Counted from the stretch's first letter, positions 559 to 37,126 are shown. The stretch is DNA of 64,000 nucleotides from Candidatus Daviesbacteria bacterium RIFCSPLOWO2_01_FULL_39_23 (GCA_001776935.1 MFDN01000005.1:2505-66504); one strand, 5' to 3'. Notes: generated by a model from the sequence alone, not told the origin. A program made the numbers and translations.

Positions 559-1257
559 CTATTTACCAAAATTACGCCTTTGCTCCTGATACCAGGCAAC
601 TGCTTTTTTAAGTTCACCCGCATCAAAATCCGGCCAAAGCGTTGTAGTGAAATAGAATTCCGAATAGGCTGTTTGCCAAAGCAGAAAATTGGAAAGCCTT
701 GACCTGCCTCCTGTCCGAATTACCAATTCAGGGTCATTTTGACCATTAGTATATAAATGTCTTTCCACAATAGTTTCATTAATTTTTTTCACCTCAATAC
801 CCTCTTTAACAATATCTTTGATCGCTTCAATCAGTTCCTTTTTCCCTCCATAATTTAAAGCAATATTTAATTTGATTGACTCATTTTTAATATATGTTTT
901 TCTGATTTGATCAATCAGTTTGGTGATAGTAGCCGGGAGTCCGTGCATTTCCCCTAAAATAGTGATCCTGACTCCTTTTTGCATCATTTTCTTAAGTCTT
1001 TTATGATAGCCCCTTCTAATCAAGCTGAACAGACTTAAAACTTCTCTTTTTGCCCGCTCTTTGATATTTTCAGTAGAAAGCGCATAAACCGTAACAGTTT
1101 CCACCCCTAATTTCTCAGCCGCTTCCACCACCTTTTCTAAGGTCTCTGAGCCTTTTTCGTGCCCTTTTATATCAGGCAAACCCTTCCCTCTTGCCCATCT
1201 CCTGTTTCCATCCATAATTATGGCGATATGTTGGGGGATATTTTGTTTACTAATCAT
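559..1257 (-). CDS. uppS: Isoprenyl transferase / undecaprenyl-diphosphate synthase
   Basis: 232 aa. HIAIIMDGNRRWA N-terminal motif. cis-prenyltransferase family throughout. Confidence 0.88.
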   Translation of the reverse strand: MISKQNIPQHIAIIMDGNRRWARGKGLPDIKGHEKGSETLEKVVEAAEKLGVETVTVYALSTENIKERAKREVLSLFSLIRRGYHKRLKKMMQKGVRITILGEMHGLPATITKLIDQIRKTYIKNESIKLNIALNYGGKKELIEAIKDIVKEGIEVKKINETIVERHLYTNGQNDPELVIRTGGRSRLSNFLLWQTAYSEFYFTTTLWPDFDAGELKKAVAWYQEQRRNFGK

Positions 1258-1359
1258 ATTTTTGCTATTAGCTTTTAGCTGTTAGCTATTTGCTGCTAAA
1301 AGCGAACAGCCTGCCCGCAATGCTACGCATAGCGTCGCAGGCGGGCCAATAGCGAATAG

Positions 1360-2211
1360 CTACTTAGTCCTTTCTACTAAATACTCTGCCATCTGCTGTA
1401 ATAATTTCCTCATTTTTATATCTTTAGTAATTTCCGGCAACATTTTCTTAGTTTGACTTATATATTTATCCGCTTCATTTTGTGCCGCAGTCATCCCTCC
1501 AATCCAACCCGCCTCATTGTCTAAAATATCATCCTTTATCTGAAAAGCAATCCCGATTTTTTCCCCAAATTTAGCCAAATGTTTCAACCATTGTTCGCCT
1601 GCCCCGGCCAAAGTTGCCCCCAAAACAAGCGGCCCGGAGACAGAATACTGCGCAGTCTTGTATTTAGCAACTACCAGGCTATCCCCTTTCTCCACATCCA
1701 GCATCTGTCCTATGGCAGTATTGAGCAGGATACCGGAGAGATATTTTAAAACTTCATTCTTCTTGCTATCCGGAAACCTGCTTTCCGCAATAATTCTTGT
1801 TGCCAGGAAAAACCCCCCGTCTCCAAGACAAATAGTCCGGGATATGCCTTTATGATCAGCCCCAAGAGCCTTATAGAGCGAAGGCTTGCCCCGCCTGACT
1901 TCACTCTGATCTATAACATCATCATGAGCCAAAAATGCGCTGTGAAATATTTCATAAGCTGCAGCAATTTTAATAATAGAGCTTTCAATCTGAGGACTGA
2001 TGACTGACGACTCCTTCCCTATCTCATATCCCAAAACCACTAACATCCCTCTAATCCTCTTTCCCCCGCGGCAACTGTCAATAAATTTATCAACCAATGG
2101 TAATAAACCATTGCTGATTACGCTAATTTCTGTTCTCCAGACAGCTAAAATCTTATTCAGCTCTTCATTAATCTTTGTAATATTTTTTTGGTAAAATTCC
2201 TCAAAATCCAT
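1360..2211 (-). CDS. Polyprenyl diphosphate synthase (FPP/GGPP synthase family)
   Basis: 283 aa. Two Asp-rich motifs (FLAHDDVID and FQIKDDILD) typical of trans-prenyltransferases. Contains an in-frame ctgatgactgacgac heptamer repeat. Confidence 0.85.
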   Translation of the reverse strand: MDFEEFYQKNITKINEELNKILAVWRTEISVISNGLLPLVDKFIDSCRGGKRIRGMLVVLGYEIGKESSVISPQIESSIIKIAAAYEIFHSAFLAHDDVIDQSEVRRGKPSLYKALGADHKGISRTICLGDGGFFLATRIIAESRFPDSKKNEVLKYLSGILLNTAIGQMLDVEKGDSLVVAKYKTAQYSVSGPLVLGATLAGAGEQWLKHLAKFGEKIGIAFQIKDDILDNEAGWIGGMTAAQNEADKYISQTKKMLPEITKDIKMRKLLQQMAEYLVERTK

Positions 2212-2240
2212 TTTTCTAATTTAACACATTCCGGGTAAAA

Positions 2241-3437
2241 GTGGTAAAATCCAAGCTTATGCGCACTAAAATTAATCTTCGCGATTTTAACTCTGCCCAA
2301 AACAGGCGGGAATTTCTGGAAAAAGAACTGGATATTAGACTGGATAATATTGGCTGTTTCAGTTTTCCGGAAGATCAGGCTGTAGACAGAAACATCGAGA
2401 ACCTGATCGGAGCCACTCAAATCCCCTTGGGAGTTGCCGGACCATTATTGTTAGCGAAAAGCGAAAAGCGAAAAGCGAAAAGCTATTTTATTCCCCTTGC
2501 TACCACCGAAGGTGCCCTTGTAGCTTCGGTTTCCAGGGGATGCAAGGCAGTAAACGAGGCTGGCGGAGCAATGGTATTTGTGGAAAATACCGGGATTACG
2601 CGGGGCCCTGTTTTTAAAGCAGATAATTTAGAAAAATCCTTTAAAGCAAAAGCCTGGATCGAAAAAAATTTTAAAACCCTGGCCAAAGCAGCTGAAAGCA
2701 CTTCATCTCACCTGAAACTGCTTAAAGCAGAATACCAAATAACAGGCAGGAATTTATTTGTCAGGTTTTATTTTGATACTGCTGATGCCATGGGCATGAA
2801 TATGGCAACCATTGCCACTGGAGAAATGGTGAAAATAATTGAAAACAAAACAGGCGTCAAATGCATATCTTTATCAGGCAACTTTTGTATTGACAAAAAA
2901 CCTTCATATTTAAATTTTATTCTGGGAAGGGGCAAAAAGGTTTGGGCCGAAAGCATCTTACCTAAAAAGCTGGTTATTGATACTTTAAAAGTTACTCCTC
3001 AGGAAATTGCGGAAGTAGTTGAAAGAAAATGCCACATAGGCTCTATCATATCCGGATCTTTAGGCTACAACTCTCATTTCGCTAACATCGTTGCCGCTAT
3101 TTTTGCCGCCACCGGTCAGGACCTGGCTCATGTAGTAGAAGCAAGTATGGGAGTTACTTCAGCTGAGGTGCTGGAAAATGGGGACCTTTATTTTTCCATC
3201 TATCTCCCCTCTTTGGTAGTCGGCACTGTAGGAGGAGGCACGCATTTACCTACCCAGCAGGAAGCTTTAAAAATAATGCAGGTTTGTGATGTGCTAGAAT
3301 ATTCTCAAGTTGTCGGGGCAGCAGTATTGGCAGGCGAGCTTTCACTTTTGGCCTCACTAGCAGAAGGCTCGCTGATAAAAGCACATAGACAATTAGGAAG
3401 GAAGGAGCGAAGTCGCGAGTCAACCAAAGCAATTTGA
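2241..3437 (+). CDS. HMG-CoA reductase (class I-like)
   Basis: 398 aa. ENLIGxxQIPLGVAGPL and DAMGMN motifs. In-frame (agcgaaa)x4 repeat encoding AKSEKRKAKS at 2455-2486. Confidence 0.85.
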   Translation: MVKSKLMRTKINLRDFNSAQNRREFLEKELDIRLDNIGCFSFPEDQAVDRNIENLIGATQIPLGVAGPLLLAKSEKRKAKSYFIPLATTEGALVASVSRGCKAVNEAGGAMVFVENTGITRGPVFKADNLEKSFKAKAWIEKNFKTLAKAAESTSSHLKLLKAEYQITGRNLFVRFYFDTADAMGMNMATIATGEMVKIIENKTGVKCISLSGNFCIDKKPSYLNFILGRGKKVWAESILPKKLVIDTLKVTPQEIAEVVERKCHIGSIISGSLGYNSHFANIVAAIFAATGQDLAHVVEASMGVTSAEVLENGDLYFSIYLPSLVVGTVGGGTHLPTQQEALKIMQVCDVLEYSQVVGAAVLAGELSLLASLAEGSLIKAHRQLGRKERSRESTKAI

Positions 3438-3554
3438 GGATTTTGTGTGCAGTCCTACTTCACAAAATTCTCATATAGCAAGGCTAGAGAGAACTATCAT
3501 GTTGCAGTATTAACTAACCGAGCGGTGCTTTGTGACCGCGACGAGCGACCATCT

Positions 3555-4598
3555 ATGACTGGAATTGTTTCATACGGAGTTTACATACCAAAATACAGAA
3601 TAAAGCCCTCACAAGTGGCTCATGCCTGGGGCAAAGAAGTCAAAGGGGTAGAAAACTCTTTGGGAGTTTTTGAAAAAGCAGTAGCATCCGTAGATGAAGA
3701 TGCAGTAACTTTAGCAGTTGAGTCAAGTTTTAGAGCCTTAACAAACGGGCAAATTGAACCGGAAAAAATTGGCGCTATCACAATTGGTTCTGAATCACAC
3801 CCTTATGCTGTTAAACCCTCCTCTACCACAGTAGCCGGCATTTTAGGTATGCAGGGTGAATATCTGGCAGTTGATTTGGAATTTGCCTGTAAAGCCGGCA
3901 CTGCCGGAATACAACTCCTTTCCTCTTTGGTTGAAGCCAAAAAAGCCCAATATTGCCTGGCTATAGGTTCAGATGTGGCACAGGCCAAGCCTTCGGATGT
4001 TTTGGAATATACTGCCGGATCTGCTGCTGCAGCTTTTATCTTAGGCCGTGATAACTTGATTGCCGAGCTTTTAGATTTTACCTCTTATTCATCTGATACC
4101 CCTGATTTTTGGAGAAAAGACAACGAAAAATTCCCTTCCCATGCCGGCAGGTTTACCGGCGGTCCGGCTTATTTTGCCCATGTTGGCAAAGCCTCAGAGC
4201 TTATATTTGAAAAAACTAAAATGAAACCTTCTGATTTTGATTATGCTGTTTTTCATATGCCAAACGGAAAATTCCCCAAAGAGGCAGCCAGAAAATTAGG
4301 CTTCAGTGAACAACAGCTTAAACCAGGCTTTGTGGTACCTTTTATCGGTAACCCCTACTCTGCCTCATCAATGGTAGGACTTGCAGCTACTCTGGATATT
4401 GCCAAAAATGGTGATAAGATTTTTGTCTGTTCCTACGGCTCAGGAGCAGGTGCTGATGCTTTTGTTTTTGAAGTAACAAAAAATATTACCGCTCACCAGA
4501 CTAAAAACAAAGAAAGTGTGGCAAAACAGATTAAGAATAAACAATATATAGACTATTCATTGCTGGCTAAGAATATTATTAGCAAGTATAGGATTTAA
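3555..4598 (+). CDS. HMG-CoA synthase, archaeal type
   Basis: Starts MTGIVSYGVYIPKYRI. Thiolase-fold condensing enzyme. The ORF-track start at 3447 is a GTG inside a 150-bp interspersed repeat, so the ATG at 3555 is preferred. Confidence 0.8.
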   Translation: MTGIVSYGVYIPKYRIKPSQVAHAWGKEVKGVENSLGVFEKAVASVDEDAVTLAVESSFRALTNGQIEPEKIGAITIGSESHPYAVKPSSTTVAGILGMQGEYLAVDLEFACKAGTAGIQLLSSLVEAKKAQYCLAIGSDVAQAKPSDVLEYTAGSAAAAFILGRDNLIAELLDFTSYSSDTPDFWRKDNEKFPSHAGRFTGGPAYFAHVGKASELIFEKTKMKPSDFDYAVFHMPNGKFPKEAARKLGFSEQQLKPGFVVPFIGNPYSASSMVGLAATLDIAKNGDKIFVCSYGSGAGADAFVFEVTKNITAHQTKNKESVAKQIKNKQYIDYSLLAKNIISKYRI

Positions 4599-4742
4599 GA
4601 AGAGTCAAGAGACTAGCAACTAGAGTCAAGGAAAATAATACTTGACCCATTCGGCTTCGCCAAATCTGACTTGGCTTCGCTCAGGGTCATCCTGAGTATA
4701 GTCGAAGGATTGACTCTAGACTCTAGCGACTAGTCACTAATT

Positions 4743-5894
4743 ATGAAGATTAAAGTTTTAGGTACCGGTTTAACAAAATTTGGAGAGCTTTGGGACAAAT
4801 CACTTTTTGATTTGGCACAGGAGGCAGCTTTGGAAGCTATTGGCGATTCGCATTTAGCTGTTAACCAAATTGAAGCTGTCTTTGTGGCTAATATGTTATC
4901 CGGGAAATTATCCGGACAAGATCACCTGGGAGCAGTCGTAGCTTCTAATTTAGGCTTATCCGGCGCCTCTTTTAGAATAGAAGCAGCCTGCGCTTCCGGG
5001 GGCCTGGCAGTACACTTGGCCATCCAATCACTTCTTTCAGGCACTTATAAAAAGGTCCTGGTTGTGGGAGTGGAAAAAATGACTGATTCCCCTGCTTCAG
5101 AGATTACTTCTGCTTTAATGGGCGCTGGCTCGCAGACAGAAAGGCTGGCCGGCTTAACTTTTCCCGGCCTGTATGCTTTGATGGCCAAAGCCCATATGCA
5201 AAAATACGGCACCACCAAAAATGAACTGGCTCAGGTGGCTGTTAAAAACCACTATCATGCTTCTTTAAACGATAAAGCCCAATTTCCCTATGAAGTTACA
5301 GAAGAAAAGGTCCTGGAAAGTTCCTGTATCTGCACCCCTTTTACCCTGTTTGATGCCTCCCCTGTTTCAGACGGCGCAGGAGCTTTGGTTTTATCAGCAG
5401 ATGATGAACCTGGGAGCCTGCCGGCCGGCAGGCAGGTTTTCATCAGCGGGTCAGCTGTTGCAACCGACACCATTGACCTTGCCAACAGAAAATCATTGAC
5501 AGAAATTACAGCAACTCAAACAGCTTCTCAGAAAGCCTTAAAACAGGCAGGAGTGGAAATAAAAGATATTAAAGTGGCAGAAGTTCACGATTGCTTTACC
5601 ATCGCGGAAATTTTGGCCATGGAAGATTTGGGTTTTTGCCAAAAAGGCGAAGGAGGCAGGTTTATTGCCAAAGGCACCACTAAACTGGGAGGGAAATTAC
5701 CCGTAAACACCTCAGGAGGCTTAAAAGCCTGCGGTCATCCGGTGGGAGCTACCGGTGTTAAACAAATTGTAGAAATAACTAATCAATTAAGGGGAAATTT
5801 GGGCAAAAGGCAGGTCAAAGGAGCCAATGTCGGCCTAACTCAAAATGTGGGCGGAACAGGCGCAACAGTAGTAGTACATGTACTACAAAATTAA
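4743..5894 (+). CDS. Acetyl-CoA C-acetyltransferase (archaeal-type thiolase)
   Basis: 383 aa. Thiolase fold with catalytic Cys in the EAACASGG region. Sits next to HMG-CoA synthase and DUF35, as in archaeal mevalonate clusters. Confidence 0.8.
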   Translation: MKIKVLGTGLTKFGELWDKSLFDLAQEAALEAIGDSHLAVNQIEAVFVANMLSGKLSGQDHLGAVVASNLGLSGASFRIEAACASGGLAVHLAIQSLLSGTYKKVLVVGVEKMTDSPASEITSALMGAGSQTERLAGLTFPGLYALMAKAHMQKYGTTKNELAQVAVKNHYHASLNDKAQFPYEVTEEKVLESSCICTPFTLFDASPVSDGAGALVLSADDEPGSLPAGRQVFISGSAVATDTIDLANRKSLTEITATQTASQKALKQAGVEIKDIKVAEVHDCFTIAEILAMEDLGFCQKGEGGRFIAKGTTKLGGKLPVNTSGGLKACGHPVGATGVKQIVEITNQLRGNLGKRQVKGANVGLTQNVGGTGATVVVHVLQN

Positions 5895-5998
5895 CAATTT
5901 ACAATGTACAATTTACAATTGAATTCACAATCTATATTTTTGTTTTCTGCTTTGTACATTCTACATTTTACATTGTACATTGAAGGCAACGCCGACCT

Positions 5999-6298
5999 AT
6001 GAACAGCCCGGTACAAATTTGGAGATCGCATAAAAACTTACATAACTACCTTGGGAAACAAGGCAGGCTTTTGGTGTGGACTAAAATATTCATTGCCCCC
6101 TCCGGTTTTGAGCATCAAACTCCCTATATTGTTGGAATTGTAGAATTTGCTGACAAAGAAAAATTGCCTTTGCAGATTGTAGATTGCGAAGAAGAATCGT
6201 TAAAACCAAATCAAAAAGTTAAAGTAGTTATTAGAAAAATAGGCAAAGTAAAATCAGAAGATGTGATTGAATACGGGCTCAAAGCAAAACCTTTATGA
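5999..6298 (+). CDS. DUF35 OB-fold scaffold protein of the thiolase/HMG-CoA synthase complex
   Basis: 99 aa, OB-fold-like. Its stop overlaps the mvk start by 4 nt. Its position matches the archaeal thiolase-HMGCS-DUF35 trio. Confidence 0.55.
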   Translation: MNSPVQIWRSHKNLHNYLGKQGRLLVWTKIFIAPSGFEHQTPYIVGIVEFADKEKLPLQIVDCEEESLKPNQKVKVVIRKIGKVKSEDVIEYGLKAKPL

Positions 6299-7308
6299 AG
6301 ACCTCCGGCAGGACAATTACAGTTTCTGCCCCGGGAAAAATACACCTGCTTGGCGAACATTCTGTAGTATATGGGAAGCCTGCTTTGCTTACGGCTATAA
6401 ATCTCAGGACCAATGTCATCCTGACGGCAAAACCCGAAGGATCTCTCGCGAATGCAAGCTCCTCAGATGAACTGAGAGATTCTTCTCCGCCCACAGCTAC
6501 GCAGTTGCTGGCGGATCAGAATGACAAAATAAAGGCAATAATTGAACCTATCGTTAAAAAATATCTGAAAATAAAACAAATCCCGCCCTATAAATTGGAA
6601 ATTTCCTCAGAATTTCCTTTAGGAGCAGGGCTTGGCTCTTCTGCTGCCATATCTTCGGCATACATCGGCGCGCTCTTAACTTTTCTTAAAATTAAATGGG
6701 ACTTACACCTTATCAATAAACTTTCCTTTGAGGCTGAAAAAGCTTTTCATGGAAATCCTTCGGGCGCAGATAATGCCGCAGTAGTGTTTGGGGGCTTAAT
6801 CTGGTTTAGAAAAGAAACTACTGATTTAAAAATAATCCAACCGATTAACTCCCCTGTCCCTGCCAATATAGCTGGAAATTTTATACTGATTAACACCGGA
6901 AAACCAAAAGAAACTACCAAAGAAATGGTGGGATTAGTAAAATTAAGAGTCAAGAGTCAAGAGTCAAGAGTCAAGAAAATATTTGATCATCAGGAACAAT
7001 TAGTTAAAGAGCTTTTACTGACCATTCAATGCGGGAATGAAAAGGAATTAATCAAAATTATCAGGGCAGGAGAGAAAAACTTGGAAAAGATGGGTGTAGT
7101 TTCTTGGTATGTTCAATCTATTATCAGAAAAATAGAAAAAGCCGGAGGTGCTGCAAAAGTGTGCGGAGGAGGAGGAAAAACCAAAGCAACAGGTGTACTT
7201 TTGGCTTATCATCCGGAAAAATCAGTACTGGAAAAAATTGCAAAATCATATGATCTACCTTATTATACGGTTGTCTTGGGAGCCGAAGGCCTGCGAAAGG
7301 AAATATAA
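6295..7308 (+). CDS. mvk: Mevalonate kinase (GHMP kinase)
   Basis: N-terminal SAPGKIHLLGEHSVVYG and PLGAGLGSSAA GHMP motifs. Carries an in-frame MITE-like insertion (6414-6526) encoding ...SSPPTATQLLADQND..., and an (agagtca)x4 repeat. Confidence 0.8.
   Translation: MKTSGRTITVSAPGKIHLLGEHSVVYGKPALLTAINLRTNVILTAKPEGSLANASSSDELRDSSPPTATQLLADQNDKIKAIIEPIVKKYLKIKQIPPYKLEISSEFPLGAGLGSSAAISSAYIGALLTFLKIKWDLHLINKLSFEAEKAFHGNPSGADNAAVVFGGLIWFRKETTDLKIIQPINSPVPANIAGNFILINTGKPKETTKEMVGLVKLRVKSQESRVKKIFDHQEQLVKELLLTIQCGNEKELIKIIRAGEKNLEKMGVVSWYVQSIIRKIEKAGGAAKVCGGGGKTKATGVLLAYHPEKSVLEKIAKSYDLPYYTVVLGAEGLRKEI
6414..6526. mobile_element. MITE-like repeat (tgtcatYctga...tcaggatgaca family) inserted in-frame in mvk
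   Basis: Terminal motifs tgtcatcctgacg ... tcagaatgaca. Internal gccagcaactgcgtagctgtgggcggagaag is shared with the copies at 17271-17370 and 17685-17812. Confidence 0.7.
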
Positions 7309-7356
7309 CCACTTGATTGTACGATCGCACACTAAAATGATAAAAATGAAGCTAAA

Positions 7357-8358
7357 ATGAAAAGAGAAATAACAATATCAGCCCCCGGAAAATTAATGTT
7401 ACTTGGTGAACATGCTGTTGTTTATAACAGGCCCTGTATTGTTACAGCAGTCGGACAAAGAATGAGAGCTACAGTTGAGCTAACAGAGAAATCAACTTTC
7501 CAGCTTAATGCCCCGGATGTACAAATTGCAAATTATCAAAAGCCAATGGATCAATTAGGAATTGGCGATCTTCCCAAAGGAGCTAAATTTGTAGAAATTG
7601 CAGTGGTGAATTTCTTAAGGTCACTCCTTGAGTACTCAAGGAGTGACCTTGTAAAACCGGGAGTCAAGGTTTCTACGACCTCAGAATTTTCTTCCCAATT
7701 CGGTTTTGGCTCTTCCTCCGCCTCTACTGTTTGCGTAATTAAAGCCTTATCAGAAATTACAGAAGCAAATCTTAATAACAAAGAGATCTTTGATCTCGCG
7801 TACAAGACAGTGCTTGATATACAGGGCAAAGGTTCGGGATTTGATGCAGCAGCAGCCACCTTTGGAGGCACACTTTATTTTGTAACCGGAGGAAAAACAA
7901 TTGAACCTTTAAACATTGACTCCCTTCCTTTAATAGTTGGTTACAGCGGCATTAAAGCAGATACTGTCACCTTAATAAATCAGGTAAAAGAAAAAGCCGG
8001 GGGAAACCCCCAAGCTGTAGAAGATATTTATGACAATATTGGCAAGCTGGTAGAACAAGCCAAACTCGCTCTTTTGGGTAAAGATTGGCAAAGCTTAGGT
8101 GAGCTTATGAATGAAAACCAAAAACTACTAACCAAACTTGGAGTAAGCATAAACAAGCTTGATGATATGATTGCTGCCGCCCTTAAAGCAGGGGCATATG
8201 GGGCAAAGCTGTCCGGCGCCGGCGGCGGAGACTGTATGATAGCTTTAGCGCCGGAGGATAAGGTGCAAGCCGTCAAAGATGGAATAACCTCTGTCGGCGG
8301 CCAGATAATTGAGGTAGAAACGAATGCAGAAGGAGCTAGAATAGAGACGAGGGACTAG
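7357..8358 (+). CDS. GHMP kinase, probable phosphomevalonate kinase
   Basis: ISAPGKLMLLGEHAVVY and GFGSSSA motifs. Lies between mvk and mvd. Contains a perfect 34-bp palindrome in-frame (7617-7650). Confidence 0.65.
   Translation: MKREITISAPGKLMLLGEHAVVYNRPCIVTAVGQRMRATVELTEKSTFQLNAPDVQIANYQKPMDQLGIGDLPKGAKFVEIAVVNFLRSLLEYSRSDLVKPGVKVSTTSEFSSQFGFGSSSASTVCVIKALSEITEANLNNKEIFDLAYKTVLDIQGKGSGFDAAAATFGGTLYFVTGGKTIEPLNIDSLPLIVGYSGIKADTVTLINQVKEKAGGNPQAVEDIYDNIGKLVEQAKLALLGKDWQSLGELMNENQKLLTKLGVSINKLDDMIAAALKAGAYGAKLSGAGGGDCMIALAPEDKVQAVKDGITSVGGQIIEVETNAEGARIETRD
7617..7650. repeat. Perfect 34-bp palindrome within a coding region
   Basis: aaggtcactccttgagtactcaaggagtgacctt equals its own reverse complement. 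Encodes LRSLLEYSRSDLV in-frame, and the same peptide appears in the antisense ORF. Confidence 0.9.
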
Positions 8359-8373
8359 AGTCAAGAGACAAGT

Positions 8374-8730
8374 ATGAGAAACAACAACGGCTACAGAAAT
8401 TTAATCGCTTGGCAAAAAAGTAATCTACTAGCCCATTTTATTTATGATTTAACTGCAAAATTCCCCAAGGATGAGCTTTTTGGAATGACTTCACAAATGC
8501 GTCGCGCAGCTCTATCAGTTTGTGCTAATATTGCAGAGGGTTATAGCCGAAGAGGCTTAAAGGATAGAAGACATTTCTATCAAATGGCAATGGGATCTTT
8601 AACGGAACTGGAATTTTTTATTGATTTTGCTTATGAAAGAAAATTTATTAGTCATGTTGATTATGAGAAAATATTAGAGATACATATGGAAACAGCTCGA
8701 GTTTTAAGCGGCTTGTTAAAATCCACTTGA
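8374..8730 (+). CDS. Four-helix-bundle protein (23S rRNA IVS protein family, Avd-like), second copy
   Basis: 118 aa with QMRRAALSVCANIAEGYSR. Paralog of 183..548. Flanked by gagtcaag-family inverted repeats. Inserted between the PMK-like kinase and mvd. Confidence 0.75.
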   Translation: MRNNNGYRNLIAWQKSNLLAHFIYDLTAKFPKDELFGMTSQMRRAALSVCANIAEGYSRRGLKDRRHFYQMAMGSLTELEFFIDFAYERKFISHVDYEKILEIHMETARVLSGLLKST

Positions 8731-8758
8731 CTCTAGACTCTAGCGACTAGTCACTACT

Positions 8759-9739
8759 ATGAAAGCAACAGCCATTGCGCCGTCAAACATTGCTTTTACA
8801 AAATATTGGGGCCGCAAGGATGAAACCTTAAGATTGCCTGAAAATGGCAGCATTTGTATGTGTTTAAGCAATCTCCTGACCACTACTACTGTAGAATTTT
8901 CCCAAGGCTACCAGCAAGATGAAGTTACCATCAACGGAGGGGGGCTTGAGGCGGGTGAAGCTAAGCGGATTATCAAACATCTGGATAGAATCAGAAAACC
9001 GGCTGGCATTGACCGGAAAGCCAAAGTGGTATCAAATAATAATTTTCCCACTGGTACAGGTCTTTCTTCATCTGCTTCCGGTTTTGCCGCTTTAACTCTT
9101 GCTGCCAGCAAAGCCGCTGGTTTAGAGCTATCCGAGAAAGAATTATCAATACTGGCCCGCCAGGGCTCCGGCTCAGCTTGCAGATCTATCCCTTCAGGGT
9201 TTGTGGAATGGTTGGATGGAGACACCTCTGAGACTTCCTACGCTATCCAAATCTTCCCTCCTGGCCATTGGGCTATCATAGACATAGTGGCAGTTGTCTC
9301 AGAAGGAAAAAAAGAAGTTCCAACTTCGCAAGGAATGCAAAAAACACATTCTTCTCCATTTATGGCTGTCAGACTTTCCAAAATGAAAGAAAAAAATGAA
9401 AAAGTCAAAAAACTTATCAAAGAAAAAAATTTCAAAGAATTTGGGGAATTACTGGAACAGGAAGCCTTAGAACTTCACACCATTATGCTCACTCAAATTC
9501 CTCCGCTTATTTATTGGACTCCCGGGACTTTAAGGATAATGAAATTAACACCCTTTTGGAGACAGGAAGGAATACCTGTTTATTTTACCATCAATACCGG
9601 ACAGGATATTCACTTAATTTGTGAGTCAAAAAATGTTGAAAAAGTTAAATCCAAATTATCAGGGCTGGATTTTGTCAAAGATATTATTGTTAATGCTCCC
9701 GGAGAAGGCGCCAGACTTTCAAAAACCCACCTTTTTTAA
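8759..9739 (+). CDS. mvd: Diphosphomevalonate decarboxylase
   Basis: 326 aa. AFTKYWGRKDETLRLPENGSICM N-terminus and GTGLSSSASGFAAL GHMP motif. Confidence 0.8.
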   Translation: MKATAIAPSNIAFTKYWGRKDETLRLPENGSICMCLSNLLTTTTVEFSQGYQQDEVTINGGGLEAGEAKRIIKHLDRIRKPAGIDRKAKVVSNNNFPTGTGLSSSASGFAALTLAASKAAGLELSEKELSILARQGSGSACRSIPSGFVEWLDGDTSETSYAIQIFPPGHWAIIDIVAVVSEGKKEVPTSQGMQKTHSSPFMAVRLSKMKEKNEKVKKLIKEKNFKEFGELLEQEALELHTIMLTQIPPLIYWTPGTLRIMKLTPFWRQEGIPVYFTINTGQDIHLICESKNVEKVKSKLSGLDFVKDIIVNAPGEGARLSKTHLF

Positions 9740-13425: not shown

Positions 13426-13440
13426 AATCTAGTCAATCTC

Positions 13441-13592
13441 AAAAGCGAGTCGCGAGTCTATCAAAGCAATCTGAAGATTTTATGTGCAGATAATCATCAT
13501 AAAATCTCCACATAGCGAGGCTAGAGAATATTGTAAATGTTACAGATATTACTAGCCGAGCGGTGCTTTGTGACCGCGACGAGCGATCATTA
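13441..13592. repeat. About 150-bp interspersed repeat (copy 2; copy 1 at 3403-3554)
   Basis: High identity to 3403-3554 (gcgagtcgcgagtc...catagcRaggctagaga...ccgagcggtgctttgtgaccgcgacgagcga). Contains the gcggt-gctttgtg-accgc hairpin. Confidence 0.8.
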
Positions 13593-15692: not shown

Positions 15693-15830
15693 TGCGAGGG
15701 GTGGCAGCGAAGAGGGGATCCCGGCGCGTAGCCGGAAGAGCGAAGCGATCGAGGATGCACGACGGGAAGCCGAGCTGACAGGACCCCGAGCACATACTGT
15801 TAATGGTTTTGCGCACCGACGAGCCGCAAA
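15693..15830. repeat. GC-rich interspersed element (intergenic copy)
   Basis: cgaggggtggcagcgaagaggggatcccggcgcgtagccgg...gaggatgcacgacgg...ccgagctgacaggaccccgagc. Homologous to 43501-43642 inside polA. Roughly 60% GC in an AT-rich background. Confidence 0.7.
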
Positions 15831-15834
15831 AAAG

Positions 15835-17673
15835 CTACTTCTTGTATTGCTGCTTATACATCTCTATTAACTCTTTCACAGTTGTTGCATCCTCAGCTTT
15901 TTTGTCCGCTTCCCTAAATTGAACAAGTCTTGGAAATCTCAAAGCATAGCCGGGTTCTGTCTCTGTTTTTCCTGCAGTATGCACCGGCGAACGGGTTATT
16001 TCATCAGCCAATACCTCTATAACAAGTCTTGGCTCCACCCAAACACTGGGAATGATTAAAGAATTCACCCTGGCCGGCTTACTTTTTACTTTTAACTTTT
16101 GACTTTTTACTTCAATACCCCTCCACTCCTCATCAGAGAGTCCTGTGCCGATTTTAGAAACTGTCACAAATTCGTCTTTTTTATCATCATAAACTCCCAC
16201 CAAAAGCGACCCTGCCCCAAATCCCGATCTTTTGCCTTTACCAAAAATATATCCCAAAATTACACAATCTATAGTATCTTTTAATTCCCCTGAAGAATGC
16301 CTTTTTAGTTTAACCCAGTTAAAATTCCTGGCTCCTGCTTCATATTTTGAGTCAGGTCTTTTAACCACCAATCCCTCAAGCCCCAAAGATATTGCCTCAT
16401 CCAAAAGATCCTGCAATCTTTGCGCTTCACTCACCATCTCCCCTTCTTCCACTACTAAAGTGTCTCCATCTGCCACTACAGCTTTTAGCTCTTTTAATCT
16501 TTCAGTAAGCGGTAAATCAATTAAAGATATCCCATCTTTATATAAGATATCAAAACAAAAAGCCCTCAGAGGAATCTTTTTTGTCATTTCTGCGATTCCA
16601 TACTTTCTGCGTCTTTGTGTAGTCTCCTGAAAAGGCAAAAACTCATCCGAAGCAGGGTTATAGCCTATGGCTTCACAATCCAAGATGGCTGATTTTGCTT
16701 TAATTTGTTTTATTGCCCCTTCGGCAATTTCCGGAAACATCGGGGTAGTTTCTTCCAGGTTTCTCGAAAACAATCTTACTGTCTGATGACTGACAGCTGA
16801 CGACTGACGTCTATCTATGTGTATTTGTACCCTAAAACCATCCAATTTTCTTTGGGCATTTACTTCTCCCAGCTTTTCAATTACTGTCTTGCCGGAAGGT
16901 AATCTTTCAGCAAGCTGCGACCGAATCGGCCTGCCTACTTGTATTTCCAGCTTTTCTACAGCTTCCAATCCGCCCTGCCATAAAGTTTCTCCAATTAAGC
17001 CTAAATCAGATACCCTGTTATAGCCTCCCTCTAAAAGTTTACGCTTTGACCTGTCCCCCAGCTTTAATTTGGCAAAAGCATCCAAAATAGTCGGGTCTCC
17101 GATCCCTAAACGGGAAACTCCCAAAGGAATCCTGACTAAATGCTTTGCAGACACCGCATCCATTTGTTTTAATAGTCCTACCAAAAGTTGTTGTTTTTTC
17201 TCTACAGTTCCCTCCCCTGTTGTTTTGGCAATCTGAGTTAGAATATGAAACACCTGACTTACGTTTAATTTGTCATTCCGATCCGCCAGCAACTGCGTAG
17301 CTGTGGGCGGAGAAGAATCTCTAGATTTACTTTTTGAATCTTGAGATCCTTCGCTACGCTCAGGATGACACTTTATATCACTAAGTTGCTGGACTACTAA
17401 TCCCAAATCCCCTACTTTTCCATATTCTTTTAAAACTTCTTCCCTCCCGATGCCGTAGGCTTTGGCAATACTTGCAGCCACTGTTTTTTCTGCCATCCCC
17501 ATTTCCAAAGGTTCATAAAACGGAGCAACTCTGCCTTGAATTAAATAGGAAACTTTGCCAATTTCTTCTGTTTTAATTTCTCTAAACAACTCGGTTAAAA
17601 TATCAATCAATAAAAGCCTTGAGGAAGTTGCTTCTAGTTTTTCAAAATATTCTGCTAGTTTAGAAAATAACAT
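15835..17673 (-). CDS. ATP-dependent DNA ligase (archaeal/eukaryotic type)
   Basis: MLFSKLAEYFEKLEATSSR N-terminus, KLDGFR adenylation motif, and EGLVVK and OB-domain motifs. The track start at 17739 is a GTG inside a MITE, so the ATG at 17673 is preferred. Two in-frame repeat insertions. Confidence 0.85.
   Translation of the reverse strand: MLFSKLAEYFEKLEATSSRLLLIDILTELFREIKTEEIGKVSYLIQGRVAPFYEPLEMGMAEKTVAASIAKAYGIGREEVLKEYGKVGDLGLVVQQLSDIKCHPERSEGSQDSKSKSRDSSPPTATQLLADRNDKLNVSQVFHILTQIAKTTGEGTVEKKQQLLVGLLKQMDAVSAKHLVRIPLGVSRLGIGDPTILDAFAKLKLGDRSKRKLLEGGYNRVSDLGLIGETLWQGGLEAVEKLEIQVGRPIRSQLAERLPSGKTVIEKLGEVNAQRKLDGFRVQIHIDRRQSSAVSHQTVRLFSRNLEETTPMFPEIAEGAIKQIKAKSAILDCEAIGYNPASDEFLPFQETTQRRRKYGIAEMTKKIPLRAFCFDILYKDGISLIDLPLTERLKELKAVVADGDTLVVEEGEMVSEAQRLQDLLDEAISLGLEGLVVKRPDSKYEAGARNFNWVKLKRHSSGELKDTIDCVILGYIFGKGKRSGFGAGSLLVGVYDDKKDEFVTVSKIGTGLSDEEWRGIEVKSQKLKVKSKPARVNSLIIPSVWVEPRLVIEVLADEITRSPVHTAGKTETEPGYALRFPRLVQFREADKKAEDATTVKELIEMYKQQYKK
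17271..17370. mobile_element. MITE-like repeat inserted in-frame in the DNA ligase gene
   Basis: tgtcattccgatccgccagcaactgcgtagctgtgggcggagaagaatctctagat...gagatccttcgctacgctcaggatgaca. Encodes ...SRDSSPPTATQLLADRNDK... Confidence 0.75.
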
Positions 17674-17684
17674 AAAAACCTCTC

Positions 17685-17812
17685 TGTCATTCTGATCCGC
17701 CAGCAACTGCGTAGCTGTGGGCGGAGAAGAACCTCCCACGAATGTGGGTATTAGGTATCCAGAATAAATCTGGAGATCCTTCGTCCCGATTAAATCAGGA
17801 CTCAGGATGACA
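17685..17812. mobile_element. MITE-like repeat immediately upstream of the ligase start codon
   Basis: Same family (tgtcattctgatccgccagcaactgcgtagctgtgggcggagaaga ... ctcaggatgaca). Its end lies 11 nt from the ATG, next to a GAGAGG Shine-Dalgarno-like sequence. Confidence 0.7.
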
Positions 17813-20077: not shown

Positions 20078-20581
20078 TCATGTTGTAATGTCGCAGGTCA
20101 AGCGATTAATTTCCATCACGATCACCCACTTCTCTATTCCCAAATCTTTGATGTAGCTTTCTAATTTATCAAAGACACTTCTTTTACTAATCCAGACACT
20201 CTTTTGTAAATGTTTAAAACCCCATTTCTTAAGATTCCTTCTAAAAAGATTTCTTATTATTCTTTTTTCTTCCGGAATATCAAATATCACTACTCTCCAC
20301 TTCCCGTCCCATTTCTTTTCTTCAGATTGATTATCAACAAGGTCTTTTCCTGCTTCTGTTAACTTAATTAAAACATCATTTTTAAGCTTAATTTGTTCAA
20401 TTAACCCGCCTTCTCTTAATCTTTTTAATGCTTGAGACAGAGAAGATTTTTTTAAATCCGGAATACCGTGGTGATAGCGGTAATGGTGATAGGCAAAATC
20501 TTCCAAGCGGATATAACCATCTATTGTTTTTTCTAGAGCAAACAAAATTGCATTTGTTAAACTCTTTTTATAAACCCTCAT
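20078..20581 (-). CDS. PaaX-like transcriptional regulator (small, wHTH + WDGKW domain), paralog 1
   Basis: WDGKWRVVIFDIPEEKRIIRNLFRRNLKKWGFKHLQKSVWISK resembles the WDGKW region of E. coli PaaX. The N-terminus is wHTH-like. Highly similar to 34375..34893. Confidence 0.55.
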   Translation of the reverse strand: MRVYKKSLTNAILFALEKTIDGYIRLEDFAYHHYRYHHGIPDLKKSSLSQALKRLREGGLIEQIKLKNDVLIKLTEAGKDLVDNQSEEKKWDGKWRVVIFDIPEEKRIIRNLFRRNLKKWGFKHLQKSVWISKRSVFDKLESYIKDLGIEKWVIVMEINRLTCDITT

Positions 20582-21152: not shown

Positions 21153-24100
21153 CTAGTTTCCGACATACTCATCCCAACTTTTAATTTGTAGATCTTCTAC
21201 TTTTTTGCTAGCCAGGCTGGTTATTAAAAGCTCTGCTGCCTGCAGGTTAGTTATCAAAGGAATACCCAAATCCACACAATTCCTTCTTAAAATAAATCCG
21301 TCAGTTTCGCCTTTTTCCACCCCTCCCTCAGATATATTTATCACAAGATCAATCCCCTCGTTTAGAAGACTTAGCACAGAAGGTTCTCTTTTTTCTGCAA
21401 TTTTATAGATTCTGGTATTTTCAATGCCATGACTTTTTAGAAACTCTGAAGTATGGTGGGTGGCATATATTTTTAAACCTAAATTAATAAGCTGTTTTGC
21501 AGAAAGCAGCAAATCAAGTTTATTTTTATCCCCTCCCAAAGACAGCAATACTCCTTTTTTGGGTATTTTAAACCCAACAGCCAAAATGGCTTTAAGATAA
21601 GCCTCCTGCAGGTCATCCCCAAAACAAGCCACCTCCCCTGTTGAGGACATTTCCACCCGGAGTCTCGGATCCGCTCCTTTAATCCGGGAAAAAGAAAACT
21701 GCGGAGCTTTAACTCCCACATAATCTAAATCTATGGTCTTAAATCCATTGGTAAGTTTTTCTCCCATCATAACTTTTGTGGCCAATTCCACAAAGTTATA
21801 TCCTGTTACTTTGGAGACAAAAGGGAAAGACCTGGAAGCCCGGAGGTTTAATTCAATCACCTGTATTTTATTGTCTTTTGCCAAAAATTGAATATTGAAA
21901 GGGCCATTGATATTTAAAGCCTGAATAATCTTTTTGGTGGCCTCTTTTACCTTCCTGACAGTCTCAAGATAAAGCCTTTGAGGCGGCAAAACAATGGTGG
22001 CATCACCTGAGTGTACGCCGGCATTTTCCACATGTTCTGAGATGGCATAAATCAAAAGTTCCCCGCTTTGCCCTACTCCGTCAACTTCAATTTCTTTCGC
22101 CCCTTCTACAAACTTGGAAATTACCACCGGATGTTCGGGAGAAATATCCGAGGCGCTTTTTAAGTGCTTGGTTAGCTCAATAGAAGAATATGCCACATTC
22201 ATGGCAGAACCGGATAACACATAAGACGGCCTGACTAAAACCGGGTAACCGATTTTCTTGGCAAATGTTAAAGCCTCATCTACTCCTTTTAAGCTCTGCC
22301 ATCCCGGCTGTTCTATTCCTAGTGTGTCTAAAAGCTTAGAAAACTTATTACGGTCTTCTGCCCGGTCAATATTTTCAGGGGAAGTTCCCAGTATTTTATA
22401 ACCGGCCTTAAAACAAGCGATTGCCAAATTGTTGGGTACCTGTCCCCCAAAACTTAAAACAAGGTTGGCATTTTCTTCAATATCATAAATGTCACTAACT
22501 CGCTCAAAGGTCAGCTGTTCAAAATACAATTTATCCGCGCTGTCAAAATCTGTAGAAACTGTTTCCGGATTACAATTTATAATAATTGTTTCTAACCCTT
22601 TTTCCCTTAATGTTTTGGCTGCTGTTACACAGCACCAATCAAATTCCACAGAAGAACCAATCCTGTAAGGGCCGGAGCCAAGGACAATTGCTTTTTCGCT
22701 TTTCGCTATTAGCTTTTCGCTGTTAGCTTCTGATTCTTCTCCATGATATGTCAGATATAAATAATTTGTTTTAGCCGGGAATTCTCCTGCTAAAGTATCA
22801 ATATGTTTTACAACCGGTACTATGCCATGTTTCTTTCTGAATTCTCTAACTTTTTCTTGGGTGGTTTTAAATGCTTTAGCCAGTACTTTATCTGAAAAAC
22901 CTAATCTTTTTGCATCAAGAACGCTTTTCGCTGTTAACCCGCCTGCGACGCTATGCGTAGCATTGCGGGCAGGCTGTTGGCTTTTAGCTGCTAATGGCGA
23001 ATGGCCAATAGCTAATAGCTTTTTCTCAAACTCCACCATCTCTTTTATCTGATACAAAAACCATGGATCAATCCCTGTGGCCTGATAAATATCTTCTACT
23101 GATTCACCTTTACTAAGCCTTTTGGCAATGGCAAAAAGCCGCTCTGTGGTGGGCAAAAGCTGTGTATCATCTGTACCGTTTTCTAAAAGCCCATCCTGCC
23201 CTGTTTCAAGCATCCTGATGGCTTTTTGCAACACTTCCGGAAAAGATCTGCCTATTGCCATCACCTCTCCCACGCTTTTCATCTCCGAACCGATCGCTTC
23301 TTTTGCTCCCGCAAACTTTTGCAAATCCCACCTTGGAAGCTTAATCACAATATAATCCAAAGCCGGCTCAAAAAAGGCTGAAGTCGATAAAGTAACTCTA
23401 TTTTTAAGCTGCGGCAGATTGTAACCCAAGGCAATTTTGGCAGCAATATAAGCCAAAGGATAACCTGTGGCTTTAGAGGCTAAAGCTGAAGAACGCGACA
23501 ACCTGGCATTAACCTCTATCACCCGGTAATCATTATTCTCCGGATTTAGGGCAAATTGGATATTGCACTCCCCTACAATCCCCAAATACTCAATCACTTG
23601 TAGAGATAACTTGCGTAAAAAATGATACTGGTAATTATTTAAAGTTTGCGAAGGAGCTACCACAATACTCTCACCGGTATGAATCCCCAAAGGATCCATA
23701 TTTTCCATATTACAAACAGTGATTTTATTACCCTTATTATCCCGGACCACTTCATACTCCACCTCTTTCCAATGTTTTAAATATTCTTCAATAGCAATCT
23801 GCGGAGCCTGACTCAAAGCACTGGTGACCATTTTAATAAATTCCTCCTTACTTTCAACTACTCCTGAACCTAAACCTCCTAAAGAAAAACCGGATCGTAT
23901 AAGAAGCGGATACTCTAACTTCTCAGCAATTTCCAGAGCCTGATTCAAACTTTTGGCAAAACCGCCGACGGGAACTTTGACGCCAATTTTTGCAAGTTCC
24001 CCGGCAAAAAGCTCCCGGTCTTCCGTAATTTCTATACTTTTTACAGGAGTACCTAAAACCTTAACGCCATACTTTTTAAAAATCCCGTTCTTTTCCAAAG

Positions 24101-24394: not shown

Positions 24395-24477
24395 TGTCAT
24401 TCTGAGCGTAGCGAAGAATCTCTTGACTTGTTCAAGGTTCCAAACTAGATCCTTCGGCTAATCGCCTCAGGATGACA
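24395..24477. mobile_element. MITE-like repeat filling the carA-carB intergenic region
   Basis: tgtcattctgagcgtagcgaagaatctc...gatccttcggctaatcgcctcaggatgaca. Abuts the carA stop codon and ends 11 nt from the carB start. Confidence 0.75.
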
Positions 24478-26520: not shown

Positions 26521-26669
26521 TGTCATTCTGGCCTGTCCAGAATCCTTTCTGTCATTTTGTTGTCATTCTGATCCCGATGTATATCGGGAGAAGAATCTCT
26601 AGATTAATTCTAGATACATCTTAAACAAGTTAAGAGATCCTTCTGGTCCAATGGACCATCAGGATGACA
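26521..26669. mobile_element. Composite or nested MITE-like repeats directly upstream of the pyrB start codon
   Basis: tgtcattctggcc..., ctgtcattttg..., tgtcattctgatcccgatgt...agaagaatctctagat...gagatccttctggtccaatggaccatcaggatgaca. Begins 1 nt from the pyrB ATG. Confidence 0.7.
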
Positions 26670-32376: not shown

Positions 32377-33321
32377 TCACTTTTGACAATGGAGACAAAA
32401 GTATGTGCCGCGGCCTGCTAAGGCAATTTTTTTAATTTCTGTTTTGCACATTTTGCAAGGATGTTTGTCCCGCCAATACACATAGGCGTAATCTAAAAAA
32501 TAGCCTTTGTGGCCTTCCGGATCTACAAAATGCGCCCGGGTGGACCCGCCGCGTTTTATCCCCTCTTTTAAAGCTTTAATAATGCCCTCAAAAAGTGATT
32601 TAAACTGTTTATCAGTTAAATCCCCGACTTTTGTTCGCGGATCAATTTTAGCATTAAAACAAGCTTCATTTGAATAAATATTCCCTATTCCGGAAACAGC
32701 ACTTTGATCCATAATCGCCACCTTAACCGGCATAGATTTATGCCTTAATAAATTCTGTTTCAAAACCTCCCAGGTAAATCCTTTTTCCAACGGCTCAGGT
32801 CCTAAATTTTTCAGAGAATTGTCAATTGCCAATTGTCCATTGTCAATTACCTTCACCCATCCAAAACGACGCTGGTCATTAAAATAAAGATGGGAGTTAT
32901 TCGAAAACGTAAATATAACTCTAGTGTGAGGATTCGGCATAGTTCCCAGCATATCTTCTGTGGGGTGCCCACCTATAAAACGCTTTTCGCTACTGGCTAT
33001 TCGCTTTTCGCTTGGAATATAAATAAGTTGGCCGGACATTTTTAGATGGAATAGAAGAGTTATTTGCTGTTCGCTATTGGCTGTTAGCTTTTTGCTTTTG
33101 GCTATTAGCGAACGGCGAATAGCTAATAGCTTTTCCCCTACGAGGTCTATACCGAGCAGTTTAGCTCTTCTCCATATTTTGAGTACATTTTTACCCTGGG
33201 CTAAATTAGGGTTCCCGATAAAGGATTTAGGAGAAAGAATTTGGATTTTTTGGATTTTCAACCCGATGATTTTTTTGGTCAACCCCAAACGGATAACTTC
33301 CACTTCCGGTAATTCAGGCAT
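32377..33321 (-). CDS. mutM: Formamidopyrimidine-DNA glycosylase (Fpg/Nei family)
   Basis: MPELPEVE N-terminus, H2TH region, and C-terminal C4 zinc finger (CKMCKTEIKK...CLHCQK). Several in-frame heptamer-repeat insertions (PSEKRIASSEKRF etc.) lengthen it to 314 aa. Confidence 0.8.
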   Translation of the reverse strand: MPELPEVEVIRLGLTKKIIGLKIQKIQILSPKSFIGNPNLAQGKNVLKIWRRAKLLGIDLVGEKLLAIRRSLIAKSKKLTANSEQQITLLFHLKMSGQLIYIPSEKRIASSEKRFIGGHPTEDMLGTMPNPHTRVIFTFSNNSHLYFNDQRRFGWVKVIDNGQLAIDNSLKNLGPEPLEKGFTWEVLKQNLLRHKSMPVKVAIMDQSAVSGIGNIYSNEACFNAKIDPRTKVGDLTDKQFKSLFEGIIKALKEGIKRGGSTRAHFVDPEGHKGYFLDYAYVYWRDKHPCKMCKTEIKKIALAGRGTYFCLHCQK

Positions 33322-34374: not shown

Positions 34375-34893
34375 TCATATTTTGTCGCTGGGGCCATACT
34401 TATCTGATTCAAAAACCCAAACCCACTTCTCTACCCCCAAATCTTTAATGTAAGCAAATAATTTATCCGTAATATTTTTTTTAGAAATCCAGACACTTTT
34501 TTGGAAGTGCTTAAAACCCCACTTTTTGAGATTCCTTCTAAACAAATCCCTTATTAATCTTTTTTGTTCCGGAATATCAAAAATAACTACCCGCCACTTG
34601 CCATCCCACTGATCAGTCTCAACGTCAGAAAAAAGTATTTGAGTTCTACCTTCATCTGTTAATTTTAAAATAATCTCTCCGGAATTAATTTTCTCTTCCT
34701 TAATATAACCCTTTTCTCTTAATCTTTTGATTGCTATTGATAATGATGATTTGTTTAAAGGATATTCCCAGCCGCTGCCATCGTAGTAGTAATGAGTATT
34801 AAACATAACATCCTCAAACCTGATATAACCATCCGCCGCTTTTTCTAAAGCCAACAGCACCCACCAACCGGCACTCTTCTTTTGCAATCCCAT
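34375..34893 (-). CDS. PaaX-like transcriptional regulator, paralog 2
   Basis: WDGKWRVVIFDIPEQKRLIRDLFRRNLKKWGFKHFQKSVWISK, near-identical core to 20078..20581. The track start at 34899 is a TTG, so the ATG at 34893 is preferred. Flanked on both sides by CACGATCG-core palindromes. Confidence 0.55.
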   Translation of the reverse strand: MGLQKKSAGWWVLLALEKAADGYIRFEDVMFNTHYYYDGSGWEYPLNKSSLSIAIKRLREKGYIKEEKINSGEIILKLTDEGRTQILFSDVETDQWDGKWRVVIFDIPEQKRLIRDLFRRNLKKWGFKHFQKSVWISKKNITDKLFAYIKDLGVEKWVWVFESDKYGPSDKI

Positions 34894-34895
34894 GC

Positions 34896-34927
34896 ACAAA
34901 ACATTACACGATCGTTGAATGTTTTGT
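34896..34927. promoter_or_regulatory. Inverted repeat acaaaacatt-acacgatcgttg-aatgttttgt (candidate operator)
   Basis: 10-bp perfect arms around a CACGATCG core. Overlaps the start region of PaaX-like paralog 2. A related IR gacaaaatatg-tcacgatcgtatc-catattttgtc lies at 34349-34383. Confidence 0.4.
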
Positions 34928-37105: not shown

Positions 37106-37126
37106 ACTTCTCTAATATCATCCTGA

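Follow-up and report, generated by a model that had tools for sequence, protein, structure and literature searches.

A stretch of 64,000 nucleotides from Candidatus Daviesbacteria bacterium RIFCSPLOWO2_01_FULL_39_23, referred to here as the window, contains two copies of a GC-rich hairpin repeat, one (copy A) in an intergenic spacer and the other (copy B) within polA. The family to which they belong is, in our judgment, probably a mobile or recently spreading selfish hairpin of Candidatus Daviesbacteria and related Patescibacteria, similar in kind to Rickettsia palindromic elements (RPEs) and MITEs, tolerated in genes and translated. Family membership, a covarying hairpin, strand asymmetry, in-frame occupancy of genes in both orientations, and an identity between copies greater than that between host genes are established here. 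From its sequence, copy A is best read as an intergenic member of the family and copy B as a member translated in the PolA linker.

A covarying, strand-specific hairpin repeat

The two copies and the internal insertion that distinguishes them are as follows.

15694-15791, + strand: copy A, hairpin repeat core; 98 nt, 69% GC; covariance model 87 bits, E = 1.4e-18
43505-43641, − strand: copy B, hairpin repeat in polA; 137 nt, 67% GC; covariance model 69 bits, E = 8.6e-12
~43530-43568, − strand: insertion private to copy B; 39 nt (a multiple of three), two extra stem-loops

The first-pass annotation had described two related segments in opposite orientation, and this description holds, with 89% identity between them (97 aligned bases, shared positions). 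The 138-nt range that it took as the unit does not: the repeat unit is 98 nt, and positions 15792-15830 lie outside it. Copy B is equivalent to copy A with a 39-nt internal insertion in the 3′ arm of the element, which contributes the stem-loops GCTCGC..GCGAGC and GGGAGTC..GACTCCC. Pairwise alignment of the two copies gave the identical blocks GCGAGGGGTGGCAGCGA, GGGATCCCG, CGCGTAGCCG, CGAGGATGCACG, and CCGAGCTGACAGG.CCCCGAGC. The window has exactly two occurrences of the 22-nt 3′ motif CCGAGCTGACAGGNCCCCGAGC, compared with none across 100 shuffles, and an unfiltered covariance model search of the full window returned copies A and B only, the next match having E = 0.21. The GC content of the element is 67-69% versus ~40% for the window and genome.

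Copy A is located in a 173-nt spacer between the stop of an ATP-dependent ligase gene and the start of an EndoQ gene. Both neighbors are as originally named, the EndoQ gene being identified by its match to PDB 5zb8 (E = 1.7e-43); both are encoded on the − strand, so that the sense strand of copy A runs antisense to the transcription on either side. AUAAUUUUUU follows the antisense hairpin on the − strand, and a small hairpin (TTTTGCG..CGCAAAA) is present at 15792-15834. The antisense hairpin and AUAAUUUUUU, with or without this second hairpin, form a possible terminator for the ligase transcript. Simple scans called neither an intrinsic terminator nor a + strand promoter at copy A, and a terminator role is not general to the family, the U-run being absent at other intergenic copies. 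Other small palindromic repeats are located inside or just upstream of the ligase gene (15835-17739, − strand), at 17271-17370 and 17685-17735; in frame, they contribute the peptide KCHPERSEGSQDSKSKSRDSSPPTATQLLADRND to the N-terminal domain, and a further copy of the 51-nt repeat precedes the probable true start, MLFSKLAEYF.

The copies fold as one long imperfect hairpin, which was derived by hand and then tested on a MAFFT alignment of 25 distinct copies. Standard pairs occupy 93.5% of 790 pair cells in that alignment, versus 27-46% in controls with the 3′ partners shifted by 1-3 columns, and compensatory (double) changes are found at 12 pairs (44 cells), a score reached in 0 of 500 shuffles. 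A model-fitted alignment of 32 distinct copies was 94.3% paired, with 16 compensatory pairs. Covariation extends to the outermost pairs (A-U replacing G1-C98 and U-A replacing C2-G97), indicating that the core boundaries are real; the whole element is a single hairpin, the termini of which (GCGAGGGG and CCCCGAGC) base-pair with fixed G.A oppositions. Tandem G.A/A.G oppositions at 3-4/95-96, 16-17/79-80, and 45-46/54-55 are kept in 23-25 of the 25 copies, and several single G.A oppositions are conserved in 20-25 of them. A K-turn was considered and discarded because the 3-nt bulge lies four base pairs from the G.A pairs, an unsuitable geometry. The initial suggestion of a structured, RNA-derived element therefore survives in its first part, on the strength of the pairing and covariation; the second is unsupported, in that a search of the window against Rfam 15 at gathering score detected only a tRNA, and a search at E ≤ 10 over both copies detected no credible match.

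The fold belongs to one strand, whatever the orientation of the element in its host gene, because G.U cells outnumber A.C cells (39 versus 9) and the sense strand is the more stable in either host orientation: in 28 of 30 copies with RNA parameters and in all 30 with DNA parameters. For copy A, the sense fold has an energy of −39.8 kcal/mol (z = −3.0), and the antisense fold has z = −0.7; the sense fold of copy B has an energy of −62.1 kcal/mol (z = −3.5). That the same strand-specific signature is present in both gene orientations argues against a function in host mRNA. The strand asymmetry, and it only, suggests that what is recognized could be the sense strand, folded as single-stranded DNA and acted on in trans by an enzyme whose gene lies elsewhere; we regard this as a tentative proposal, appreciably less likely than its negation. 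The opposition at 11/85 is G11.A85 in both window copies and in one other copy (L209, from another Daviesbacterium) and A11.G85 in all others, a pattern that hints at conversion, or at in situ flipping of the palindrome with length and frame preserved.

Further copies were sought with two patterns, chosen as conserved among the first four copies, and about 30 distinct ones were recovered by pattern scans. The exact-pattern scan of GTDB genomes produced five real copies on contigs of 35-41% GC (labeled Daviesbacteria, a Patescibacteria bacterium, and, for three MAG contigs, Gammaproteobacteria) together with five chance matches in high-GC genomes. JGI and other metagenome contigs produced 75 loci, ~30 of them, all low in GC, with the whole element. 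High-GC pattern matches (L127, L130-L135, and others) were dropped as chance, the rest of the element being absent. All real copies are on contigs of 34-45% GC, from Daviesbacteria or Patescibacteria where named. The covariance model confirmed 41 matches, 32 of them distinct, and the usual length is 98 nt. There are 1-3 copies per contig, and a 1.02-Mb contig gave only one exact-pattern match. The Gammaproteobacteria label looks doubtful for the three MAG contigs (L125, L126, and L129, titled "uncultured Gammaproteobacteria" in GTDB) because of their low GC content (35-41%) and because L126 encodes a UvrD that shares 77% identity with its counterpart on a Daviesbacteria-like contig, the element occupying the same site in both.

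A viral origin was rejected from scans of three collections: in IMG/VR, a 14-mer matched 120 times, in every case by chance and without a second motif in the vicinity, and a longer pattern did not match; in INPHARED phages, only four marginal 31-nt partial matches were found, in haloviruses, and judged chance; and in PLSDB plasmids there was no copy. The proposition that the similarity is due to chance, to an assembly artefact, or to conserved PolA sequence has a negligible probability: set against it are the 89% identity of the window copies, the shuffle counts, the recovery of ~30 independent copies from public assemblies of numerous samples, and PolA orthologues of 696-708 aa that do not have the segment.

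Host genes, reading frame, and the PolA linker

Twenty-four of 30 distinct copies are located inside ORFs of at least 148 aa, and the other six are intergenic or in short ORFs. The genic copies comprise 15 in sense and nine in antisense orientation, and the host frame is open in all 24. Most hosts were identified by Pfam; one without a Pfam match (L151) was assigned to L1 through its peptide context. The hosts are as follows.

PolA, six copies: sense in the window, L121, and L123; antisense in L209, L189, and L176
UvrD, two copies: L126 and L159
DinB (antisense, L125), GyrB, RadA (antisense), and DnaX
SecA (antisense), L1 (three loci), L10, class-A PBP (PBP1), and WecG (antisense)
PrmC-like methyltransferase (L143), with the copy at or just before the start
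Other hosts: a very large MerR-domain protein and an unknown protein at two loci

Genes of DNA replication or repair account for 12 of the 24 genic copies. The encoded segment is ~33 hydrophilic residues. Twelve sense copies share one common frame, ARGDSEEGSRRVAA.SE.SEDARRDTELAGPRA, and the antisense product is ARGPASSVSRRASS...RRDPSSLSPLA, with six of the nine antisense copies beginning at codon position 1. Well-bounded genic length variants measure 86, 101, 101, 110, 125, and 137 nt versus the usual 98, and all six differences are multiples of three (calculated chance ~0.0014); intergenic lengths, which include 97 and 100 nt, are not bound by this rule. Because of the open frames and the multiple-of-three lengths, we infer that the element is probably read through by the ribosome rather than excised.

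The converse, in which the element is removed from RNA in the manner of an intron with re-ligation, or bypassed by the ribosome, would yield proteins without the extra residues. It has in its favor the base-pairing of the element termini, and some mitochondrial genes have GC-rich hairpin inserts that are bypassed. One account describes hairpin-triggered transposon excision from mRNA in animals (PMC12779559). For the Daviesbacteria element, we consider such removal very improbable, and an intron or excised RNA was rejected, given the open host frame of every genic copy, the multiple-of-three rule to which genic but not intergenic copies conform, the occurrence of both orientations, with the nine antisense genic copies giving the mRNA only the weaker complementary fold, and the lack of a match to any ribozyme or intron family in Rfam. 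Selection for the peptide itself, as a functional 33-residue interaction or charge module shuffled between proteins, is somewhat less remote although still highly unlikely. The sense-frame peptide is indeed conserved and highly charged, and 12 genic copies are in that frame; however, antisense copies give an unrelated Ser/Ala/Pro/Arg-rich peptide, intergenic copies are conserved as well as genic ones, the nucleotide pattern is that of pairing covariation and not of synonymous-site drift, and the segment in PolA is predicted to be disordered.

The host of copy B and the linker in which it lies are placed as follows.

42232-44532, − strand: polA, 766 aa; 5′-nuclease and family-A polymerase domains, no 3′-5′ exonuclease domain
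43483-43656, − strand: polA linker, residues 293-350 (58 residues), between the 5′-nuclease and polymerase domains

Copy B is in sense orientation and in frame, and encodes ARGGSEEGSRRVAAVSETNEDARRGSRNTASGSLNDSLTELTGPRA, ~46 residues (~297-342) of the 58-residue linker. Pfam assigns two 5′-nuclease domains (3-276) and a family-A polymerase domain (374-760) to the protein; residues 3-292 align to Taq 13-283 and residues 351-760 align to Taq 432-829. These alignments confirm what had been reported of the gene from its sequence, that the insert is in frame exactly between the two domains and that the proofreading domain is missing: there was no PF01612 match, Taq ~284-431 is without counterpart, and so are positions ~295-463 of the NCBIfam PolA profile. 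The closest PolA homologues are all from Candidatus Daviesbacteria or Microgenomates and are 696-777 aa in length, with the exception of two intein-containing proteins of >1,100 aa. A Pfam exonuclease domain is absent from all 120 orthologues listed, with or without the element. Because every listed Daviesbacteria orthologue lacks the domain regardless of the element, exonuclease loss is a separate clade-wide trait that created the permissive site and is not linked to the insert.

The orthologue alignment also established that the insert does not correspond to conserved PolA sequence. The linker is hypervariable: orthologues have from 0 to ~75 extra residues between FKSLI and TTDLD, the shortest of them (696 aa) having none. 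The same element peptide is found in two orthologues (P0002 and P0009) at 75-78% identity, and a third (P0006) has the reverse-complement product; its DNA (L209, 6868-6960) is an antisense copy at the same linker position. Other PolA linker peptides (VIPANAGIQ..LDPRLRGDD, VILSEAKDL, and VIASVAKQS..PRNDD) presumably resemble translated small palindromic repeats of other families. In an AlphaFold2 model built with a 28-sequence alignment, residues 296-349 have a pLDDT of ~25 (<50) and no secondary structure, and the linker with its insert is accordingly predicted to be disordered.

Insertion sites in general fall in loops or linkers, as judged by the AlphaFold2 disorder of the PolA linker, by hypervariability of the GyrB loop, and, for other hosts, by alignment context. 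In Daviesbacteria GyrB (L136 1902-3968; P0121-P0240), the hypervariable loop that precedes IIQRYKGLGE adds 0-50 residues to a basic protein of 646 aa and holds the element in at least two lineages (P0121 and P0125); the GyrB loops of other lineages contain peptides resembling other translated repeat families. The closest GyrB orthologues without the insert (646 aa) are only ~85% identical, so the ends of the element are not fixed to the nucleotide.

Several other repeats are present in the window. A heptad-periodic family, D1/D3 (AGCTTTTAGCTATTAGC...), has at least 14 copies, including some inside genes: polA (42411-42473), fpg (32981-33125), and carB (22683-23020). The copy in polA corresponds to an extra SGSQLAANIQQPIAKS loop relative to Taq (pLDDT ~36), and at the repeat in Fpg the N-terminal domain exceeds its Pfam profile by ~39 residues. 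Short hairpin repeats of the TGTCATTCTGAGCG..GAAGAATCTCT type, in several families, are located at 24395-24423, 37214-37242, 17343-17370, 6414-6444, 26629-26667, and 37118-37156, and peptides similar to what these would encode are found again in the PolA and GyrB loops of other Daviesbacteria. An intergenic repeat of ~150-190 nt at 3399-3552 and 13436-13590 (+ strand), with copies 79-87% identical, has an internal hairpin with a compensatory change (GTG/CAC to ATG/CAT) and may represent either a shared leader or a further element, structured or mobile. Repeat D2 (20124-20311 and 34421-34608; 188 nt, 80% identity) is common to two paralogues with PaaX/Cas2-like domains (20078-20581 and 34375-34899, − strand). 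The ftsH gene (50800-53928, − strand) contains an intein with a LAGLIDADG homing endonuclease, which accounts for a GC bump at 51-52 kb, and some PolA and GyrB orthologues of the clade contain inteins. The region 559-9739 encodes a complete-looking mevalonate cluster (HMG-CoA reductase and synthase, thiolase, two GHMP kinases, and diphosphomevalonate decarboxylase) together with prenyl-chain synthases, and a 23S rRNA IVS protein gene (8374-8730) is among them.

Probable spread and conservation of the family

Copies at the same site on different contigs were compared with the coding DNA around them (300 nt on each side, one near-identical pair left out). In all nine pairs the element is more conserved than its surroundings, at 79-95% identity versus 67-80% for the flanking coding DNA. 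Identity is 94-98% between copies from different genes and genomes, and a given copy usually has its nearest relative in another gene and contig. For example, the polA copy of L123 is 98% identical to the methyltransferase copy of L143, the antisense DinB copy of L125 is 97% identical to the L1 copy of L128, and the window polA copy is 92% identical to GyrB, DinB, and L1 copies versus 83-88% to the polA copies of L121 and L123. An opposite-orientation copy occupies the same PolA linker position in another Daviesbacterium (P0006/L209). That nearest relatives reside in other genes indicates that copies spread or are replaced, through transposition, horizontal transfer, or gene conversion. Of the two origins put forward in the first-pass annotation, the mobile element is the one favored. 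On that view, covariation would stem from a need for active lineages to maintain the fold. Because the copies include no filled/empty pair between near-identical strains, mobility is something that we infer.

Under the mobile reading, a selfish imperfect palindrome of ~98 bp and ~68% GC would spread among genes and genomes, landing in intergenic spacers and in coding regions. Within a gene, it would survive only where the frame is kept and the segment falls in a tolerant surface loop or inter-domain linker, and the PolA linker left by the clade-wide loss of the exonuclease domain would be one such permissive site. The ribosome would then read through the element, as is thought for RPEs, producing junction-spanning peptides such as ...LDGVARGGSEEGSRR...

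Several observations weigh against mobility. No consistent direct repeat indicative of a target-site duplication was detected in 30 flank pairs, and an upstream G-G-R-A bias is weak and confounded with codon phase, with no sharp target motif. Among window ORFs of ≥110 aa, 53 of 54 were scanned with Pfam and no transposase or HUH enzyme was found; pattern scans of GTDB and metagenomes found neither a cargo-bearing relative nor a split 5′/3′ motif pair, the viral and plasmid collections had no copy, and copy number is low. The concentration of half of the genic copies in replication or repair genes is not obviously predicted by tolerance filtering, and conservation above that of the host genes, together with the invariant G.A oppositions, would also fit host-level selection; greater conservation of the element than of the host gene could, taken by itself, be explained by such selection.

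The main alternative is accordingly a nucleic-acid module maintained by the host, its folded sense strand bound or processed, as single-stranded DNA or an independently made RNA, by a cellular factor of replication, repair, or chromosome organization, with the element under purifying selection and reading-frame tolerance incidental. It would accommodate the conservation of every same-site pair above its flanks, including a pair that is antisense in its gene (L196/L182), the near-invariance of G.A oppositions while Watson-Crick pairs covary, strand-specific stability independent of host-gene orientation, the share of copies in replication or repair genes, and a low copy number with no transposase found in the scanned window ORFs. 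It is less easily reconciled with the finding that same-site copies are not each other's closest relatives and that copies in unrelated genes are 94-98% identical, with the many orthologues of each host gene that are without the element, or with the absence of a fixed neighborhood, of a sense-strand promoter-like site at copy A, and of an Rfam match. We therefore think host maintenance unlikely, although it deserves more weight than removal from RNA or selection for the peptide. About as improbable is a strand-specific module under selection stronger than that on essential host genes, for example a single-stranded DNA signal for a replication/repair factor or for an HUH-type mobilizing enzyme; if true, it would explain the near-invariant tandem G.A oppositions, conservation in either orientation, and an intein-like preference for replication and repair genes.

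We favor the mobile or recently spreading selfish hairpin, and the family is best read as a new one of protein-coding palindromic selfish DNA in Daviesbacteria. If so, selfish DNA inside protein-coding genes, best known from Rickettsia, would extend to the Candidate Phyla Radiation (CPR), and part of the length variation and hypervariable loops of CPR housekeeping proteins (PolA, GyrB, ligase, Fpg, and others) would be explained. Repeat-derived segments would inflate alignments and could pass for lineage-specific domains in pipelines for CPR annotation, structure, and phylogeny. With its covariation, fixed noncanonical pairs, and use of both orientations, the family is well suited to the study of hairpin conservation, and it may lead to an unrecognized mobilization mechanism in genomes nearly without transposases.

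Comparison with known systems

Full-text searches of a paper library turned up no earlier account of this kind of element in the CPR; a paper on insertion sequences within rRNA genes of these bacteria (PMC11270868) deals with a different phenomenon. Inteins have a similar host spectrum (PolA, GyrB, DnaX, RadA, and helicases) and occur in the polA, gyrB, and ftsH genes of the clade, but the element is not an intein: its 33 residues are far too short, it has no splicing motifs, and it is found in both orientations.

MITEs, such as Correia/NEMIS, ERIC, BOX, RUP, and the Coxiella QMITE, are likewise small, dispersed, and largely self-complementary, and encode no transposase. They occasionally form in-frame fusions with host ORFs (PMC10969869). 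The Daviesbacteria element differs in that most copies are intragenic rather than intergenic and copy number is low, and two features expected of a MITE are lacking: no target duplication was present in the flank pairs, and no parent IS with matching ends was found by pattern scans or in the 53 of 54 window ORFs that were searched.

The REP/BIME-RAYT system and the IS200/IS605-derived PATEs share with the element a strand-specific imperfect hairpin, conserved mismatches, and the lack of target duplication, and the apical mini-hairpin, of the GCGAAGC type, is a classic stable DNA hairpin. One account gives REPs as 20-40 nt long, with a terminal GTAG or CGTC tag and a high copy number (PMC3733652). 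In contrast, the unit here is 98 nt, without a terminal tag, and present in two copies in 64 kb, so that size, tag, and copy number all fail and membership in REP/RAYT was rejected. Unlike the IS200-type systems, no Y1/HUH gene was found in the window, and the two window copies are oppositely oriented with respect to the probable direction of replication.

The optional GC clusters of yeast mitochondria, as in var1, are GC-rich, palindromic, and mobile, and are translated in frame in an AT-rich genome; they differ in belonging to a eukaryotic organelle, in being shorter (~30-50 bp), and in their unrelated sequence.

RPEs are the closest known phenomenon, a likeness that is functional and carries no claim of membership by descent. 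They are repeats of 100-150 bp found in intergenic and protein-coding DNA, often as in-frame fusions (PMC1779305; PMC10969869), with families RPE-1 to RPE-10 described by Ogata et al. in 2000 and 2002 (as summarized in PMC10969869 and PMC1779305). The Daviesbacteria element differs from them in its host phylum, in a GC content far above that of its genome, in a low copy number compared with dozens per Rickettsia genome, and in its use of both gene orientations with near-invariant tandem G.A oppositions. RPE families are described as ancient with lineage-specific proliferation, whereas here copies are highly similar across genomes, more so than the host genes. In both cases, however, dispersed hairpin repeats of ~100-150 bp in small AT-rich genomes, with no associated transposase and no clear signature of terminal repeats or target duplication, occupy intergenic positions and, in frame, unrelated housekeeping genes, to which they add a peptide at tolerated positions.
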